From the NCBI GenBank assembly GCA_964459975.1, contig CAYWOT010000001.1, forward strand, positions 1-31,674: a DNA stretch of 31,674 nt. The letters run 5' to 3'. Origin of the DNA: an uncultured bacterium (lineage in GTDB: Bacteria > Desulfobacterota > Deferrimicrobia > Deferrimicrobiales > Deferrimicrobiaceae). The notes beneath the pieces were generated by a model. It did not search any database. It was given only the letters and a program-made list of their open reading frames with translations, and had not been told where the DNA came from. Of the stretch, positions 19,791 through 27,938 are shown in pieces. The stretch's first letter is position 1, and each line of letters begins with the position of its first letter. The translations under genes and the position numbers were made by a program.

Positions 19791-19816
19791 CCCGCGTTTC
19801 TCACCAGGCTTCTGCT

Positions 19817-19843
19817 GCTGCCGCGGCCGTCGGCTGCGGCAGC
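19817..19843. repeat. Strong GC-rich hairpin GCTGCCGCGGCC-GTC-GGCTGCGGCAGC downstream of the acyl-CoA dehydrogenase
   Basis: 12-bp stem with one G-T pair and a 3-nt loop. No T tract on either strand, so not a canonical intrinsic terminator. Confidence 0.45.
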
Positions 19844-20045
19844 CGTGCCCCCGCCGACGTTCGGTCATCCCCGGCCGCTCTTCCTTCTGTTCGCGCCGCT
19901 CCTGCGCCTCCATGCGCCCGCGGCACTCGCCCGTCCATGGGCAGCGTCGACGCCCTCTTCGGAGCGTACGTTCTCCCGCCACCATCCCGTGCGGACGGAA
20001 CCTCGCTCTACGCCCGTCTCCATCGCCTCGCTACGAACCCCGGTT

Positions 20046-20076
20046 AAAAAACGCGGTCCGGGCGGGCCCGTTCGCG
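20046..20076 (-). terminator. Intrinsic terminator of the minus-strand HTH-ARH gene
   Basis: Minus strand reads CGCG-AA-CGGG-CCCG-CCCG-GAC-CGCG followed by TTTTTT, 6 nt after the stop codon. Confidence 0.6.
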
Positions 20077-20082
20077 CCTGCC

Positions 20083-21744
20083 TCACGGCTCCTTGCGGGC
20101 GAACGCCAGGAGCCGGTCCGCCGACGCCTCGAGCTCGGCCTGCCAGATCAGCCCTTCGAGAAACCGTTCCGGAATCTTTCCCGCGCCGAGGTAGGCGCCG
20201 GCGAGGCTGCCCACCATCGCCGCATTCGCCTCCGCCTCGCTGCCGAGGTTCACCGCGGCCAGCACCGCGGAGGCGAAATCCTCGGGGTAGCGCAGGAAGC
20301 ATGCCCAGGCGAAGGGGATTCCCTCGGAGGCGGCGGGGCCGTTTCCGAGCGCTTCGCGGGCTTCCTCCGGTTCCGCCCGCCGGAGCAGAAGGGCGGTCAG
20401 CTCCGTGCCGAGCCGCCTCCAGATCGTCGGTGCCCCCTTCGCTCCCGTCCTGCCCCCGCGGGGCGGCCGGTCGGCTTCGACGCCCGCCACGACGTGGGAC
20501 AGTCCGCGGGCGAATCCCAGGACGTCGAGCGCCTCCGCCGACGTGTGGAGGAGACGCGCCACCGCGGAGGCCTGGGCGATCGCGGCGGCCAGCGACGCCG
20601 GGTGCGGATGCGTGATCGCGGCTTCGATTCCCGTCTCGAGTTTCAGGAGCCGGAAGTTCCCCGCTCGCAGGAGGGCGAGCGGGGCAACGCGGGCGGCGGG
20701 AGCCGACTCCGGAAGGCCGGCGCCCGACTCGAACCAGGGGAACTTCCGATCGAGCAGGTTTCGCGCGAATTCACTCCGGTCTCCGGTTCCCGGCATCCGG
20801 CGGGATCTGGCGAAGAGACCGGCGATCCGCTCGGGGTCGAGCTTCCGGGCCGAGAGAAGCGCGCGGGACAGGAGCAGGCACGCCGGAGGGGGTTGGTCGC
20901 CGAACGGAACGTTTCCGGACCCGGGCGCCGCCGGGCCGTCGATCCGTCCGAACAGCTCCCGGATGTCCCGAGGGGAGAGCCCCTGGGTGAGCCTCCCGAG
21001 CACCTCTCCTACGGCCGAGCCGAGCAGGGCGCCGCGAAAGCGGTCGCGGTAGTCGATGTTCGCGTCGAACGCGAGGAACACCGTCTCTCCCTTGGCCATG
21101 TACGAGGGGATCTTTCCCCTGCGAACGAGAAACTGGTAGATCGCCTCCGGTTCCTTCTCGAACAGGAGCGGCTGGTCCGCATCGTGGCCGGCTACGTGGG
21201 ACACCTTCCGTTCCGCCTGCAAGGCAAGCGTCCGAGCCATCTCCCAGAAATCCTCGTTTCCCGGAACGGGAATCCTGGGGAGGGTCTGCTGCAGGCTCGC
21301 GACGACGTCCTCGGCGGCGTCGAACGACAGATCGATCGGGGCTCTTCCCCTTTCGTCGCCGGGCGCTCCGCCGCTCCTCGCGGACGCGTTCGGCTGTGAC
21401 GCGGAGAGAAGTCCGTTTCCCTCTCCGGCTCCGGCGACGGGCCCGGGAGACGCCGGTTCGCCGCGGAGGGGGTACCCGCCGAAATGGAAGGCCATCAGTT
21501 TCTGGATCTGCGAAGGAGTGAAACGCAGCGCCTGCAGGATGGTCAGGAGGGTCTCCGCGCGCGGAACCCTGCCGCCATAGACGACCTGGCGAAGCAGTTC
21601 GTAGCTGAACGGGATTGCGGTGCTGTCCCGGGCGAACTTCTTCAGGGACGTGTAGCCCAGGCTCTCGATCCGTTTCCTCAACGTTGTCGCGAGAAAACCA
21701 GCGGAATGATCACCCACGATATGGGTCCTCCCGAACCCGGGCAT
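20083..21744 (-). CDS. XRE/Cro-like HTH fused to a degenerate ADP-ribosylglycohydrolase (DraG/ARH3-fold) domain; likely true start GTG at 21717
   Basis: aa 17-90 LRKRIESLGYTSLKKFARD..SYELLRQVVYGGRVP...TLLTILQAL fits the XRE HTH pattern. aa 232-550 carry ARH landmarks RDRFRGALLGSAVG..LG, R.APLAL, ITHPHP, LGNG.AA.E.IP.A..CF, AVLAAVNLG....NAAMVGSLAGAYLG, IP. GTG 21717 has GGAGG at 8-nt spacing. Confidence 0.85.
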   Translation of the reverse strand: MPGFGRTHIVGDHSAGFLATTLRKRIESLGYTSLKKFARDSTAIPFSYELLRQVVYGGRVPRAETLLTILQALRFTPSQIQKLMAFHFGGYPLRGEPASPGPVAGAGEGNGLLSASQPNASARSGGAPGDERGRAPIDLSFDAAEDVVASLQQTLPRIPVPGNEDFWEMARTLALQAERKVSHVAGHDADQPLLFEKEPEAIYQFLVRRGKIPSYMAKGETVFLAFDANIDYRDRFRGALLGSAVGEVLGRLTQGLSPRDIRELFGRIDGPAAPGSGNVPFGDQPPPACLLLSRALLSARKLDPERIAGLFARSRRMPGTGDRSEFARNLLDRKFPWFESGAGLPESAPAARVAPLALLRAGNFRLLKLETGIEAAITHPHPASLAAAIAQASAVARLLHTSAEALDVLGFARGLSHVVAGVEADRPPRGGRTGAKGAPTIWRRLGTELTALLLRRAEPEEAREALGNGPAASEGIPFAWACFLRYPEDFASAVLAAVNLGSEAEANAAMVGSLAGAYLGAGKIPERFLEGLIWQAELEASADRLLAFARKEP

Positions 21745-21771
21745 CCCCTCCGGCGAGGATGACTACAACAT

Positions 21772-21801
21772 ATTTTGCCTGGAGACAAAATTAGATTTCA
21801 A
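21772..21801 (-). promoter_or_regulatory. Candidate promoter of the HTH-ARH gene (TTGAAA-N18-CAAAAT) overlapped by the 20-bp near-palindrome ATTTTGCCTGGAGACAAAAT
   Basis: TTGAAA on the minus strand at 21801-21796. The palindrome at 21772-21791 has 8 of 10 pairs complementary. The region is strongly AT-rich against the background. Confidence 0.5.
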
Positions 21802-21853
21802 GAAAAAAATATCATTTGCATGAAGACAAGCGCAGTTGTTGCCTTTGGTCGGG

Positions 21854-23872
21854 TTACAGCGACTCCATAAGGAATTCCGCAATATCCTTCACGTGAACGC
21901 GACCCTCGAGATCGTGGAACTTTGCGGCGTCGTCGAACATGGTAAGACAGTAAGGGCAACTGGAGGCGGTGGAGTCGGCGCCGGTCCGCATCAGCTCGTC
22001 GAACCGGATGTAGTTGATCCGCTTGCCGGGAATCTCAAGCCACATTCCTCCGCCGCCGGCGCCGCAGCAGAACGCCTTCTCGCGCGTGCGGTCCGGTTCC
22101 TGGAGGACGATCCCCGGAACCGCCCGGAGGACTTCCCGCGGCGCGTCGTACAGATCGTTGTGCCGCCCCAGGTAGCAGGAATCGTGGTACGCGACGAGGC
22201 GCTCGACCGGCCTGGAAGGGACGAGCTTCCCCTGGGCGACGAGCTCGCGCAGAAGGACCGAGTGGTGGATCGCCTCCACGCGGAGTCCGAACTGCGGATA
22301 CTCGGTGCGGAAGGTGTTGAAGCAATGGGGACACGCCGTGATGACCTTCCGGACGGAGTAGGAGGCGAAGGCCTCCTTCACCGCTTCCACCATGCCGAGC
22401 TGGAAGAGCCCCTCCTCACCGAGACGGCGGACGGATTCTCCGCAGCACGTTTCCTCCGGGCCCAAGGTAGCGTAGTCGACGCCCGCCCGGTCCAGAAGCG
22501 AGACCAGCGCGCGGGTCACCTTCTGGTTGCGCGGGTCGTAGGCGCCCGCACAGCCCGCCCAGAGGAGATATTCGAAGCTCCGTTTTTCCGCCGCGAGCGG
22601 GACCGTAAGCCCGTCCGCCCAGCGGAACCGGTCGTCCTGGGGAAGCCCCCACGGGTTGCCGGTATCGCCCATCTTCCGCAGGGCGATCCGGGCCGAGTCG
22701 GGGACCTTTCCGGCGGCGACGTATCCGCGGCGGACGTCGACGATCATGTCGATATGCTCGATCAGGACCGGACACGCCTGCATGCAGGCGCGGCAAGTCG
22801 TGCACGCCCAGATCTCGTCGGGGGCGAGCACCTCGAAGGTGAAGGGGCGGACGACCGGCCGTCCCGTCTGTTTGTCGAGCGTGGCGGCGGACGGGACGAG
22901 GCGCGAATAGAGGTTCCGGCTCATCTGTTCTCCGGTCTTGAGGACCACGTCGCGGGGAGAGAGCGGCATGTCGGCCGCAAACGCGGGGCACTCGTCCTGG
23001 CAGCGTCCGCACTTGGTGCAGGCGTCGGCGGAAAGAAGGTGCTTCCACGAGAAGTCCTCCACGTCGACGACGCCCGGCCTCTCCTCGTCTTCGATCCCCG
23101 GAACCGTCTGGAGCGCCCCCTTGGGACGCGACGTCCGCAGGAAGATGTTCACGACGCCGGTCCCGAGGTGGAACATCTTGGAGAACGGGATCGTCGCGAG
23201 AAAGGCGAAGGCCAGGAACAGATGGGTCCACCAGAGCCCGCGGTGGAGGGACAAGAGGTTCGGCAGCGGCATCGGCGCGAACATCGGAGCGAGCGCGTTG
23301 CTCACCCAGGAGGCTGCAGCGCCCTCCGGCCGCGTCGCCGCCAGCCGGACCGCCTCGATGAGGAAGCCCGTCACGGCGATCGCGCCGATCAGCAGCAGTT
23401 GGAGGAGGTCGTCGCCGTCGCGGGTGAGCCCCTGCGGCCGGAAGAGCGTCCGCCTCACGAGCGCGGCGAGAACTCCCGCCAGGAGAAGAAGGCCGAACGT
23501 GTCGGCGAACAGCTTGAAGACGAGGTAGAACCCGTCGTGAAGGATCGGGATCCCGAAATCGTAGTCGACCGCCACGAGGCAGGTTGCGAGAAACAGCACG
23601 AGGAACGCGGAATAGACGGCCAGGTGGATCAGGCCGCCGGCCCTCCGCTTGAGCACCGTCTGCTGGCCGAGTCCGATCTTCCAGACGTCGACGACGCGGT
23701 TCCAAAGGTCGTCGGTCCGGTCCTCCCGCTCCGCTCGTCCGCGGCGGTACATGCCGACGCGCTCGAACAGGCCCCAGGCGACGATGAGCAGGACCACGCC
23801 GAACAGGGCATACAGGACGACAACCGCCCAATGGGGAAGATTCCAGAGGATTTCCCGACCGATCGGCTCCAT
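21854..23872 (-). CDS. Membrane-bound heme b / Fe-S oxidoreductase (NarI-like TM domain + 2x[4Fe-4S] + two CCG domains), FadF/ETF:menaquinone oxidoreductase (EMO)-like
   Basis: Hydrophobic N-terminal third with His in TM helices (LIHL, SLHR, WTHL, MFHL). CTKCGRCQDECP and CTTCRACMQACP; CCG domains WAGC...TCCGE...ACPHC and YHDSC...FCCGAGGG...SCPYC. RBS AGGAG. Confidence 0.85.
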   Translation of the reverse strand: MEPIGREILWNLPHWAVVVLYALFGVVLLIVAWGLFERVGMYRRGRAEREDRTDDLWNRVVDVWKIGLGQQTVLKRRAGGLIHLAVYSAFLVLFLATCLVAVDYDFGIPILHDGFYLVFKLFADTFGLLLLAGVLAALVRRTLFRPQGLTRDGDDLLQLLLIGAIAVTGFLIEAVRLAATRPEGAAASWVSNALAPMFAPMPLPNLLSLHRGLWWTHLFLAFAFLATIPFSKMFHLGTGVVNIFLRTSRPKGALQTVPGIEDEERPGVVDVEDFSWKHLLSADACTKCGRCQDECPAFAADMPLSPRDVVLKTGEQMSRNLYSRLVPSAATLDKQTGRPVVRPFTFEVLAPDEIWACTTCRACMQACPVLIEHIDMIVDVRRGYVAAGKVPDSARIALRKMGDTGNPWGLPQDDRFRWADGLTVPLAAEKRSFEYLLWAGCAGAYDPRNQKVTRALVSLLDRAGVDYATLGPEETCCGESVRRLGEEGLFQLGMVEAVKEAFASYSVRKVITACPHCFNTFRTEYPQFGLRVEAIHHSVLLRELVAQGKLVPSRPVERLVAYHDSCYLGRHNDLYDAPREVLRAVPGIVLQEPDRTREKAFCCGAGGGGMWLEIPGKRINYIRFDELMRTGADSTASSCPYCLTMFDDAAKFHDLEGRVHVKDIAEFLMESL

Positions 23873-24920: not shown

Positions 24921-26327
24921 ATGATCCGACGGGCGATTCCCGCCCTCCGCGAAATCTTCGGAGAGCGGTTTTCCACATCCCGCGACCAGCGGATCCGCCA
25001 TTCCTACGATGCGACGGGGAGGATGGTCCTGCCCGACGCCGTGGCGTTCCCGGCGAGCGCCGAGGAGGTGCGGCGAGCGGTCCTCCTGGCGAACGAACAC
25101 CGGTTCCCCGTGCTCCCCCGCGGCGCCGGGTCGGGTTTTTCCGGCGGCGCCGTGCCGGTGCGGGGGGGGCTCGTTCTCTCGACCCGCGGGCTCGCCCGCA
25201 TCGTGTCCTTCGACGAGGCGAACCAGCTCGCGGTCGTCGAGCCGGGCGTGGTGACGGGGACCCTCAAGGACGAGGCCCGGAAGCGCGGCCTGTTCTACCC
25301 TCCCGATCCCGGTTCTCTCGCGTTCTGCACGATCGGCGGGAACATCGCGGAGTGCGCGGGGGGCATGTGCGCGGTCAAGTACGGGGTCACGCGGGACTAT
25401 GTCCTGGGACTCGAGGCGGTGCTGGGTACGGGCGAGCTGGTCCGGACGGGCGTCTCGACCCGGAAGGGCGTCGTCGGCTACGATCTCACCCGGCTGCTGG
25501 TCGGGTCCGAGGGCACGCTCGGAATCGTCACCCAGGCGACGCTGAAGCTGATTCCCCTCCCCGAGACGGTGGCCACGATTCTTTCCTTTTTCCGGACTAC
25601 CCGCGAAGGGGCGGCGGCGGTGGCGGGGATCATCGCGGACCGGATCACGCCGTGTGCGCTGGAGCTGATGGACCGGACCGCCGTCGACTGCGTCCGGGAG
25701 ACCGGCGGACTCGCTTTGCCGGAGGAGGCGGGGTGCGCCCTGCTGATCGAGGTGGACGGATCGACGCAGTCGGTCGCCGCGGACGCGGGGCGCGTCGAAC
25801 GGGCCTGCCGGGAGCGCGCGGCGATCGGGATCGGGCGGGCGGCGGACGAGGCGGGAAGGGAGCGCTTGTGGGCGCTGCGGCGGGCGATCTCGCCGTCGCT
25901 CAGGAAGGTGAACCCGGTCAAGATCAACGAGGACATCGTCGTCCCCCGGAGCCGTCTTCCCGACATGATGTCGTTCCTCGTCGACCTGGGGTCCCGCCTG
26001 AGCCTTCGGATCGTCACCTTCGGCCACGCGGGCGACGGGAACGTCCACGTGAACCTGATGATCTCGGGCACGGACGCGGGCGAGAGGCGGCGGGCCGACG
26101 GCGCGGTCGCCGAGCTGTTCCGGAAGACGATCGATTTCGGCGGGACGATCTCGGGAGAGCACGGGGTGGGGATCGCCAAGGCCCCCTTCTTCGAGATGGA
26201 AGTCGGGCCTTCGGGGGTTTCGGTCATGAAGCGGCTGAAAGGCTGCTTCGATCCCAACGGCATTCTCAATCCCGGAAAGATCTTCGAGGAGGAGGGAGCG
26301 GTTTCCCAAGGAATTTCCAATCGTTGA
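24921..26327 (+). CDS. FAD-linked 2-hydroxyacid oxidoreductase, GlcD/D-lactate dehydrogenase family
   Basis: PDAVAFP, PRGAGSG..GGAVP, VEPGV, YPPDPGS...CTIGGNIAECAGG..AVKYGVTRDYV, GSEGTLG, FGHAGDGNVH, GTISGEHGVG, DPNGILNPGKIF. Confidence 0.92.
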   Translation: MIRRAIPALREIFGERFSTSRDQRIRHSYDATGRMVLPDAVAFPASAEEVRRAVLLANEHRFPVLPRGAGSGFSGGAVPVRGGLVLSTRGLARIVSFDEANQLAVVEPGVVTGTLKDEARKRGLFYPPDPGSLAFCTIGGNIAECAGGMCAVKYGVTRDYVLGLEAVLGTGELVRTGVSTRKGVVGYDLTRLLVGSEGTLGIVTQATLKLIPLPETVATILSFFRTTREGAAAVAGIIADRITPCALELMDRTAVDCVRETGGLALPEEAGCALLIEVDGSTQSVAADAGRVERACRERAAIGIGRAADEAGRERLWALRRAISPSLRKVNPVKINEDIVVPRSRLPDMMSFLVDLGSRLSLRIVTFGHAGDGNVHVNLMISGTDAGERRRADGAVAELFRKTIDFGGTISGEHGVGIAKAPFFEMEVGPSGVSVMKRLKGCFDPNGILNPGKIFEEEGAVSQGISNR

Positions 26328-26364
26328 CACCGATTGCAGCGGGATGGTATGAAGATCCATTACC
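26324..26364 (+). promoter_or_regulatory. Candidate promoter of the carboxylase-mutase operon (TTGACA-N18-TATGAA, extended TG) overlapped by a second FadR-like box TGGTATGAAGATCCATTACC
   Basis: TTGACA 26324-26329 contains the glcD stop codon. The core ATGAAGATCCATT (26349-26361) matches 12 of 13 nt of the operator core at 17994-18006. Confidence 0.6.
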
Positions 26365-26394
26365 GCTTCCATCGTCGACTCGAGAGGGGGGAGG

Positions 26395-27938
<1,544 letters not shown>

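Follow-up and report, generated by a model that had tools for sequence, protein, structure and literature searches.

What becomes of an ADP-ribosylhydrolase (ARH) domain that no longer has the residues with which its relatives hold their metals? The question is raised by a gene on the reverse strand of a 31,674-nt stretch of DNA from an uncultured bacterium of the family Deferrimicrobiaceae (contig CAYWOT010000001.1, assembly GCA_964459975.1; the whole stretch is called the window here). The C-terminal part of its product has the ARH/DraG fold with a dismantled binuclear metal centre and is referred to as a pseudo-ARH domain. The original prediction, which was made for this domain, left out the most informative fact, its fusion to an N-terminal helix-turn-helix (HTH) domain of the XRE type; in view of this fusion the protein is most likely a transcription factor. 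It is probably an autoregulated one-component regulator specific to the candidate phylum Deferrimicrobiota (MBNT15), with the pseudo-ARH domain as its sensor module. The gene and the parts of its product are the following.

20083–21744, reverse strand: HTH/pseudo-ARH open reading frame (ORF), 553 aa from ATG 21744, stop codon 20083–20085 (ORF list, full-length homologues)
21726–21732, reverse strand: ribosome-binding site GGGAGGA, 8 nt upstream of GTG 21717
21481–21708, reverse strand: predicted XRE/Cro-C1-type HTH domain of five helices, residues 13–88 (AlphaFold, Foldseek, substitution rates)
21316–21474, reverse strand: disordered, low-complexity linker rich in Pro, Gly, Ala and Glu and variable in length, residues 91–143
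21049–21315, reverse strand: conserved helical middle region, residues 144–232, with the motifs GNEDFW and DQPLLFEKEPEAIYQFLVRR
20086–21048, reverse strand: ARH/DraG-fold domain with dismantled binuclear metal centre (pseudo-ARH), residues 233–553

GTG 21717 (residue V10) is the more probable start codon and gives 544 aa, because the ribosome-binding site lies 8 nt in front of it and the start codons of homologues align there; 544 aa is also the length of most homologues. Residue numbers in this text nevertheless count from ATG 21744, so that 20227–21006 corresponds to codons 247–506. The original prediction used the same numbering, and its residue numbers are 9 too high if GTG 21717 is the start.

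PF03747 (ADP_ribosyl_GH) matches residues 238–527 over the complete profile (1–287 of 287; E = 2.8e-37, 129.4 bits against a cut-off of 26.2) and is the sole family found in a Pfam scan of the protein, so there is no Nudix domain match. MJ1187, ARH3 and DraG are among the matches of PDB sequence searches. AlphaFold assigns a predicted local distance difference test score (pLDDT) of 80–98 to most of the ARH domain, and Foldseek aligns the model of this domain with the same three proteins at target-normalised template-modelling (TM) scores of 0.72–0.79 and a probability of 1.0; the match to 1t5j has E = 7e-11 and TM 0.79. The positions of the motifs that define the ARH active site are given below.

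20983–21006, reverse strand: E247 to Q254, GD changed to GE and the catalytic Glu (Glu41 of ARH3) to Gln
20884–20904, reverse strand: loop replacing T-D-D (MgA ligands), residues 281–287, variable in the family
20698–20709, reverse strand: E346-S-A-P349 in place of the G-N-G-(G/A) loop, with acidic 346 and Pro 349 fixed in the family
20608–20610, reverse strand: H379, the kept His of the TH motif
20323–20346, reverse strand: G467-N468-G469 to E474, kept and invariant
20227–20244, reverse strand: G501-S-E503-A504-E505-A506 in place of G-G-D-T-D-T, the positions of the MgB and bridging ligands

In a phmmer alignment with human ARH3, E247 pairs with D34 of the GD motif, Q254 with the catalytic E41, G282-D-Q-P285 with T76-D77-D78-T79, E346-S-A-P349 with G150-N151-G152-G153, H379 with H182 and E503-A-E-A506 with D314-T315-D316-T317. 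Every substitution listed in the original prediction is therefore present, and the residues it gave as kept, H379 and the second Gly-rich motif with E474, are in place as well. The alignment of the T-D-D loop is uncertain by one residue, since hmmalign sets the three positions at 283–285; on either alignment the window protein has at most one acidic residue there, which is not conserved across the family. E503 and E505 are conservative replacements of Asp by Glu that keep the charge, not outright losses. As in the ARH/DraG hydrolases (PF03747; ARH1, ARH3, the DraG proteins of R. rubrum and A. brasilense, Tri1, MJ1187), the fold is all-helical, the profile match is full-length, and the His of the TH motif, the second G-N-G with its following Glu and the first Asp of D-x-D-T (as D or E) are kept. 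Unlike in these enzymes, the catalytic Glu is replaced by Gln, the T-D-D motif of MgA is missing, E-S-A-P stands for the first G-N-G, neither the bridging Asp nor the last Thr is conserved, and a predicted DNA-binding domain is joined to the ARH domain.

The meaning of these changes can be read from ARH3, in which MgA is held by T76, D77, D78 and D316 and MgB by D314, D316 and T317. Replacement of any acidic ligand by Ala cripples or abolishes its activity, and D314E alone loses MgB (PMC8141533); the binuclear centre is needed by all characterised ARH enzymes (PMC7050489). Because the MgA site is gone, the catalytic Glu is fixed as Gln and the MgB site keeps one acidic residue (D/E503), Mg/Mn-dependent ADP-ribosyl hydrolysis of the canonical kind should be absent.

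The loss is not peculiar to the window. A word-indexed search returned 235 homologues, of which the best 120, all of 507–561 aa and 50–82% identical over their full length, were taken as the family; 43 distinct species-level sequences drawn from GTDB genomes served for counts at single positions. When all retrieved sequences were aligned to the family profile and scored for seven canonical residues (E, T/S, D, D, D, D, T/S), the full set was found in none of these 120 family members and in 82 of 113 other ARH representatives, a pattern far beyond chance. Family members keep zero to three of the seven, and the window protein keeps none. Seven positions are invariant in all 43 species: Q254, P349, G467, N468, E474, G501 and A504. 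Position 254 is Glu in 106 of 123 other ARH representatives, and position 247, which is E or D in 42 of the 43 species, is Asp in 114 of 122. Position 346 is acidic throughout the 43 species; the other representatives have G, N and G in the first G-N-G loop in 92, 86 and 114 of 132 cases, the first of these Gly residues standing at position 346. H379 is present in 42 of 43 species, and His is found there in 128 of 132 other ARH proteins. The D-x-D-T region has the family consensus G-[GN]-[DE]-A-[ER]-x, with D (30) or E (13) at position 503, mostly Ala at 506, and E20/R15/S4/D2/G2 at 505, the counterpart of the bridging D316 of ARH3. The former T-D-D loop varies freely. Conservation of both EAEA and GDQP had been put forward in the original prediction as a check; it holds for A504 and the acidic character of 503, and fails for 505 and the GDQP loop. 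One or more canonical residues are missing from about a quarter of the other ARH representatives, so ARH domains degenerate now and then elsewhere too; judged from the alignments, in this family the loss of the catalytic residues is ancient and fixed.

The fold has been maintained in the meantime. The ratio of nonsynonymous to synonymous substitution rates (dN/dS; Nei–Gojobori, pooled across 128 pairs with dS of 0.05–0.5) is 0.056 for the N-terminal HTH domain and 0.48 for the linker, with the middle region at 0.20 and the ARH domain at 0.21. All three folded parts are under purifying selection, and the full-length ORF is intact in about 44 of 48 species-level genomes. In three contigs from long-read-derived metagenome-assembled genomes (MAGs; L049, L050 and L051) the gene is split over two frames, which probably reflects assembly frameshifts and not real pseudogenes. 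The proposal that canonical hydrolase chemistry has been lost while the fold is kept under selection is thus borne out as far as the motifs, the dN/dS of 0.21 and the fold match reach.

The N-terminal part of the protein gives the best clue to its role. Residues 13–88 are modelled as five helices at a pLDDT of about 88–95, and a putative recognition helix, S47-Y48-E49-L-L-R52-Q53-V54, is invariant. With the model of residues 1–232, the top 50 Foldseek matches are nearly all XRE/Cro-C1 HTH domains aligned over 65–74 columns, among them DdrO, ClgR, C.AhdI, C.Esp1396I, P22 c2, HipB and HigA (TM 0.6–0.77, target-normalised; root-mean-square deviation 2.2–3.1 Å; probability 0.96–1.0). The model and its matches strongly suggest that residues 13–88 form an XRE-type DNA-binding domain. 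The linker that follows has a pLDDT below 50 and no column that is 90% conserved. The middle region is predicted to form helices at 144–157, 164–189 and 199–208 with moderate pLDDT; the cap at the N-terminus of standalone ARH relatives has its counterpart in residues 188–232 (the BLASTP alignment to P0127 begins at 188), and the region possibly serves for dimerisation. Designed helical repeat proteins that came up in a PDB profile search with the N-terminal part were rejected as matches by composition to the segment GNEDFWE...AERKV.

A regulator of this type may be expected to leave traces in the DNA upstream of its own gene, where the following features were found.

21745–21853, reverse strand: AT-rich intergenic region of 109 bp between the Fe-S oxidoreductase gene and the HTH/pseudo-ARH gene (the window has 67% GC)
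21772–21801, reverse strand: sigma-70-like promoter TTGAAA-18 nt-CAAAAT, 9/12 match
21764–21779, reverse strand: proximal candidate operator GGCAAAATATGTTGTA, a degenerate TACAA-N6-TTGTA overlapping the -10 box
21825–21840, reverse strand: distal candidate operator AACAACTGCGCTTGTC (ACAA-N6-TTGT), in a conserved position about 61 bp further upstream than the proximal site

The distal candidate operator is the sole ACAA-N(4–12)-TTGT match within the window. When 41 orthologous upstream regions were aligned, blocks of ACAA and TTGT were seen to be conserved with variable sequence between them; ACAA-N6-TTGT occurs 26 times and TTGT-N6-ACAA 33 times, against about 0.2 in shuffled sequences, and the spacings N5 and N7 are not found. 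Across 582 kb of related loci, all 34 sites that match TACAA-N6-TTGTA with at most one mismatch, and 96 of 113 with at most two, fall in the 200 bp directly upstream of the gene; about 8 sites with at most two mismatches are found in another intergenic region of the same loci that is also AT-rich. Upstream of the neighbouring genes in these 582 kb there are no sites with at most one mismatch and only scattered ones with two. The proximal dyad stands at about -61, and its orthologues have zero or one mismatch in most loci of one of two clades (clade A). About 25 of 42 loci have TACAAT as the aligned -10 element, which the proximal dyad overlaps, and 16 nt upstream of it a hexamer resembling a -35 box. 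The right half-site is TTGTA in clade A (HTH SYELLRQVVYGGR) and TTGCC in clade B (HTH SYEVLRQVVYGGH), and this variant changes together with L50V and R59H in the HTH domain, a correlation that comes from one phylogenetic split only. The operators of phage 434 are 14-bp sites of the form ACAA-N6-TTGT, with the same half-site and spacing as the candidate dyads here.

The protein would be like the XRE/Cro-C1 repressors (434, P22 c2, DdrO, ClgR, C-proteins) in its predicted five-helix HTH and in the short candidate dyads over its own promoter. It is unlike them in having no significant HTH_3 sequence match, in its much larger size, and in the enzyme-derived C-terminal domain of 320 aa that replaces a small dimerisation or peptidase domain. 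In the mechanism that we propose, a dimer would bind the TACAA-N6-TTGTA dyads overlapping the -10 box of its own promoter and so repress itself. The pseudo-ARH domain would be the signal-receiving module, whose remodelled pocket, lined by the kept H379, G467-N-G, E474 and D/E503 together with the newly fixed Q254, E/D346 and P349, would alter DNA binding when occupied. The ligand would most plausibly be a nucleotide derived from ADP-ribose or NAD, and less likely a protein partner; an input related to ADP-ribose or NAD is the weakest step of the scheme and a leading guess only. In its fullest form, a metal-free ARH-fold receptor for an ADP-ribose- or NAD-derived molecule that allosterically controls an XRE-type repressor, the proposal would define a class not previously described, and in this form it is tentative and rather doubtful. 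Literature searches for bacterial regulators of the HTH-ARH or ARH-pseudoenzyme kind turned up no account of an HTH-pseudo-ARH family.

Several observations weigh against the protein being a self-repressing sensor of such a ligand. The E-values of the HTH fold matches (0.09–0.4) are weak, a result of the domain being short. A Pfam scan of 21 members gave no significant HTH match (best E 0.12, in one of the 21), and a PDB profile search with the N-terminal 232 residues gave nothing significant; the HTH was recognised through the comparison of folds alone. Both dyads of the window carry two mismatches each, and the conservation of TACAAT may reflect the -10 box alone. The dyad counts are not independent events, as the upstream regions are orthologous and related by descent, and a different protein, for instance the IclR or TetR regulator encoded nearby, could be the one that binds the dyads. 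The distal 'site' of clade B (ACAA-N6-TTGC) is one arm of a covarying terminator hairpin. For the pocket, conservation at the active-site-homologous positions does not significantly exceed that of the remaining domain (10 of 20 against 37%, p = 0.24; dropping the decayed loop gives p = 0.037, post hoc), so that the 'selection for binding' of the original prediction is an interpretation which these counts do not bear out. With regard to ADP-ribose itself, the metals provide about 44-fold of its affinity for ARH3, as binding is weaker by that factor without metal (PMC8141533); in the alignment the first Gly-rich G-N-G loop is replaced by E-S-A-P, and nothing in the phmmer pairing corresponds to the residues that stack on adenine in ARH3.

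The hairpin of clade B (for example at 690–775 of L034) follows the Fe-S oxidoreductase gene and consists of a GC-rich stem of 12 bp, with compensatory changes between species, and a U-run; it looks like an intrinsic terminator. In the window, positions 21790–21856 show no comparable hairpin (the fold is weak, -7.3 kcal/mol, z = -0.36), and co-transcription of the HTH/pseudo-ARH gene with the Fe-S gene is possible in this lineage. The upstream gene is the following.

21854–23872, reverse strand: membrane Fe-S oxidoreductase of 672 aa, upstream and co-directional, with a NarI-like transmembrane part, 2x[4Fe-4S] and 2 CCG (HdrD/DsrK-like; Pfam)

It stands upstream in all 41 aligned loci, as a neighbour for which no functional partnership is implied. 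Throughout the phylum, the DNA encoding its last 30 residues is highly conserved. The window as a whole is core chromosome, and the context of the HTH/pseudo-ARH gene consists of housekeeping genes. A XerC/D-like recombinase and an AAA+ ATPase with AAA_2 and AAA domains (ClpX/HslU-like) are followed by genes of arginine biosynthesis (amino-acid kinase, class-III aminotransferase, ornithine carbamoyltransferase, argininosuccinate synthase and argininosuccinate lyase). Next come a diaminopimelate decarboxylase-type gene, diaminopimelate (DAP) epimerase, dihydrodipicolinate synthase and DapB, and then a fumarylacetoacetate (FAA)-hydrolase, an aminotransferase, hydroxymethyl-dihydropterin pyrophosphokinase (folK), a tetratricopeptide repeat protein, IclR, and a YsiA-like TetR with an acyl-CoA dehydrogenase (ACAD). 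The TetR-ACAD pair is convergent with the HTH/pseudo-ARH gene, beyond which lie the Fe-S oxidoreductase, an alpha/beta hydrolase, a GlcD-like oxidase, a carboxyltransferase and a biotin carboxylase. The same gene order is found in loci whose protein is 51–66% identical. Deriving the function from this neighbourhood was considered and rejected: the examined loci share the whole block including the arg, dap and folK genes, and since the entire 25 kb are syntenic across the lineage, adjacency carries little functional information. No genes for PII, DraT, nitrogenase or an ADP-ribosyltransferase were found among the window ORFs scanned against Pfam, and the Pfam families listed for the genes called in three related loci include no draT, nifH or PII. 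An Rfam scan of the window gave no match, and PADLOC none for the protein or its upstream neighbour.

Some local differences between the loci were also seen. The converging stops of the ACAD and HTH/pseudo-ARH genes are separated in the window by a gap of 292 nt with 72% GC (19791–20082), which has no similarity to other loci, where the distance is -13 to 268 nt. A gene for a GlcF-like Fe-S/CCG protein of 422 aa lies between the GlcD-like FAD oxidase and the carboxyltransferase in L001 (356–1624), L002 (175–1443) and L004 (193–1461), and the window lineage seems to have lost it, as there is no room for it at 26327–26480. L001 has a hemerythrin gene where the window has the alpha/beta hydrolase.

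The range of the family is narrow. NCBI places it in the candidate phylum Deferrimicrobiota (MBNT15), which is uncultured and predicted to oxidise fatty acids (PMC9386147). The 48 GTDB loci are without exception from MAGs; the majority bear the label Deferrimicrobiaceae, Deferrimicrobium or 'Deltaproteobacteria' (CSP1-8, GWA2_65_63), and several just 'bacterium' or 'uncultured bacterium'. A few are labelled otherwise: L011, L021, L024 and L033, with the labels Limnocylindria, Actinomycetota and Gemmatimonadota, carry the gene in the same syntenic block. The conserved 3' end of the Fe-S gene upstream is common to all aligned loci, four with such labels among them, and the odd labels are likely binning or labelling errors for Deferrimicrobiota contigs. 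In an exhaustive profile search of 1.84 billion representatives, the full-length architecture makes up two or three clusters at 50% identity, beyond which the matches cover the ARH domain only.

The closest catalytically intact relatives are 32–33% identical: P0127, a standalone ARH of 370 aa, and P0132, a fusion of HTH_3 and ARH. Such intact fusions are rare (two clusters, P0132 and P0270), uncharacterised, and named by the Joint Genome Institute (JGI) 'ADP-ribosylglycohydrolase/transcriptional regulator with XRE-family HTH domain'. The window protein is like them in the order of XRE HTH and ARH, in an insertion at 400–460 that is specific to this ARH subfamily, and in an ARH domain that is 33% identical; unlike it, they keep GD, E, TDD, GNGA and GYDADT. 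At the N-terminus the HTH core alone aligns, weakly (the SYELLRQVVYGGRVPRAETLLTIL segment against the Pfam-verified HTH_3 of P0132 gives an hhalign E of 0.1), and because the N-terminal regions show no alignment beyond this core, the fusion probably arose independently of P0132 and P0270. Source-named members of the subfamily of P0132 and P0270 are labelled Actinomycetota or Acidimicrobiia. Fusions of ARH with PF08719 (NADAR/YbiA-like) and with VWA belong to the same subfamily, and another representative, P0136, is a HARE-HTH and ARH fusion; all are uncharacterised.

Proteins of the ARH fold without catalysis have precedents. Jellyfish J1 crystallins are non-catalytic ARH-fold proteins, and the PDB sequence matches include structural ARH-like chains (mt-SAF23, 6sga; ARHL, 8xks; ribosome-assembly complexes). 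The domain has been named Ribosyl_crysJ1 (PMC7050489). In ARH2 (ADPRHL1), a paralogue among the ARH proteins, the SDDT and DSDS motifs are altered and activity was not detected, with the caution that its absence may reflect the model substrates used (PMC9738213). The window protein is like ARH2 and other non-catalytic ARH-fold proteins in that the fold is under selection while the metal motifs are altered (PMC9738213, PMC7050489), the loss of hydrolase activity being a prediction here. It is unlike ARH2, the crystallins, mt-SAF23 and ARHL, which are eukaryotic, stand alone or in complexes and are not transcription factors, in being bacterial, fused to an HTH and confined to one phylum. A functional analogy, though not membership, is offered by NrtR, a Nudix-domain regulator whose repression is relieved by ADP-ribose sensing (PMC9503650). 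In both cases a domain of an ADP-ribose enzyme family is joined to a DNA-binding domain, and ADP-ribose sensing is a guess for the protein considered here. Unlike NrtR, which adjoins genes of NAD metabolism, it has ARH and not Nudix as the sensor fold, and another DNA-binding domain.

If the pseudo-ARH domain is not a ligand sensor, it may still be an enzyme with altered chemistry, a mononuclear metal or metal-independent glycosidase or esterase site that acts on a substrate related or unrelated to ADP-ribose. In this case the fixed E/D247, E/D346, E474, D/E503 and H379 would form the site, and through the HTH its catalysis would be linked to transcription, in the manner of bifunctional enzyme-repressors. 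It is in keeping with such chemistry that these four acidic positions and the His are fixed in 42–43 of 43 species, that E346 is an acidic gain where other ARH proteins carry Gly, that P0132 and P0270 join a verified HTH_3 to an intact ARH, so that enzyme-HTH fusions do exist in the ARH family, and that the inactivity of ARH2 may be one of substrates (PMC9738213). However, the equivalent of the catalytic Glu41 is Gln in all 43 species, the entire T-D-D loop is variable, the Arg at position 505 in 15 of 43 species is hard to square with a conserved metal site, and the characterised ARH enzymes all need the binuclear centre (PMC7050489), so an altered enzyme appears unlikely. A domain without a small-molecule ligand, serving structure, oligomerisation or the docking of a protein such as an ADP-ribosylated partner, also has little probability. 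Models for it are DraG, which docks PII, and the ARH-like subunits of ribosome-assembly complexes. The lack of enrichment in conservation at the active-site-homologous positions (p = 0.24), the purely structural chains of mt-SAF23 and ARHL, and the presence of the DraG-GlnZ complex 3o5t among the Foldseek fold matches all fit such a role, but the invariant residues that are kept (H379, G467-N-G, E474, G501 and D/E503) are exactly the ligand-cleft motifs of the fold. A PII partner, which the original prediction had also entertained, gains no support from the window ORFs scanned against Pfam, which hold no PII, DraT or ADP-ribosyltransferase gene; nor does any partner gene co-vary with the HTH/pseudo-ARH gene, given that the whole block is syntenic.

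Also from the original prediction is the suggestion of an acyl-CoA ligand, derived from the neighbouring genes. A sensor of acyl-CoA, CoA or another ADP-containing cofactor that regulates the ACAD, Fe-S oxidoreductase and carboxylase neighbours would suit the 672-aa Fe-S oxidoreductase gene that always flanks it, the convergent TetR-ACAD pair and the fatty-acid oxidation predicted for the phylum (PMC9386147). The suggestion finds no support and is quite improbable: the adjacency is uninformative in a 25-kb syntenic block that also holds arg, dap and folK, none of the neighbours has a dyad with at most one mismatch in front of it, a FadR/YsiA-type TetR already stands in front of the ACAD gene, and in clade B the terminator separates the HTH/pseudo-ARH gene from the Fe-S gene. 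That the window allele is a recent pseudogene or a product of random decay is hardly credible. The degenerate motifs themselves, and nothing else, speak for it, while the ORF of 553 aa is intact, the ARH domain is under purifying selection, and promoter and ribosome-binding site are conserved. The case in which homologues keep TDDT and DTDT and this allele alone decays is excluded, as the same substitutions run through all of the best 120 homologues down to 50% identity. An autoregulated one-component regulator with a pseudo-ARH sensor module thus stays the reading to which we give most credence.

Non-catalytic ARH-fold proteins have so far been documented mainly in eukaryotes, as ARH2, crystallins and ribosome-assembly factors. 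The HTH/pseudo-ARH family is bacterial, ancient and strongly conserved, and it may be a tractable model for the repurposing of the ARH cleft, since its HTH and candidate operator make DNA binding or reporter expression a simple read-out of what a dead ARH domain does. Where automatic annotation calls these proteins 'ADP-ribosylglycohydrolase' or 'DraG', the enzyme function so implied is probably wrong. In practical terms the impact is modest, as the family is confined to one uncultured phylum. The proposed function would add an ARH-fold sensor to the enzyme-derived sensor domains of bacterial one-component regulators. If the metal-free receptor proposed above is real, it would be a functional counterpart of NrtR built from the other ADP-ribosylhydrolase fold, and would tie NAD/ADP-ribose status to transcription across the Deferrimicrobiota.

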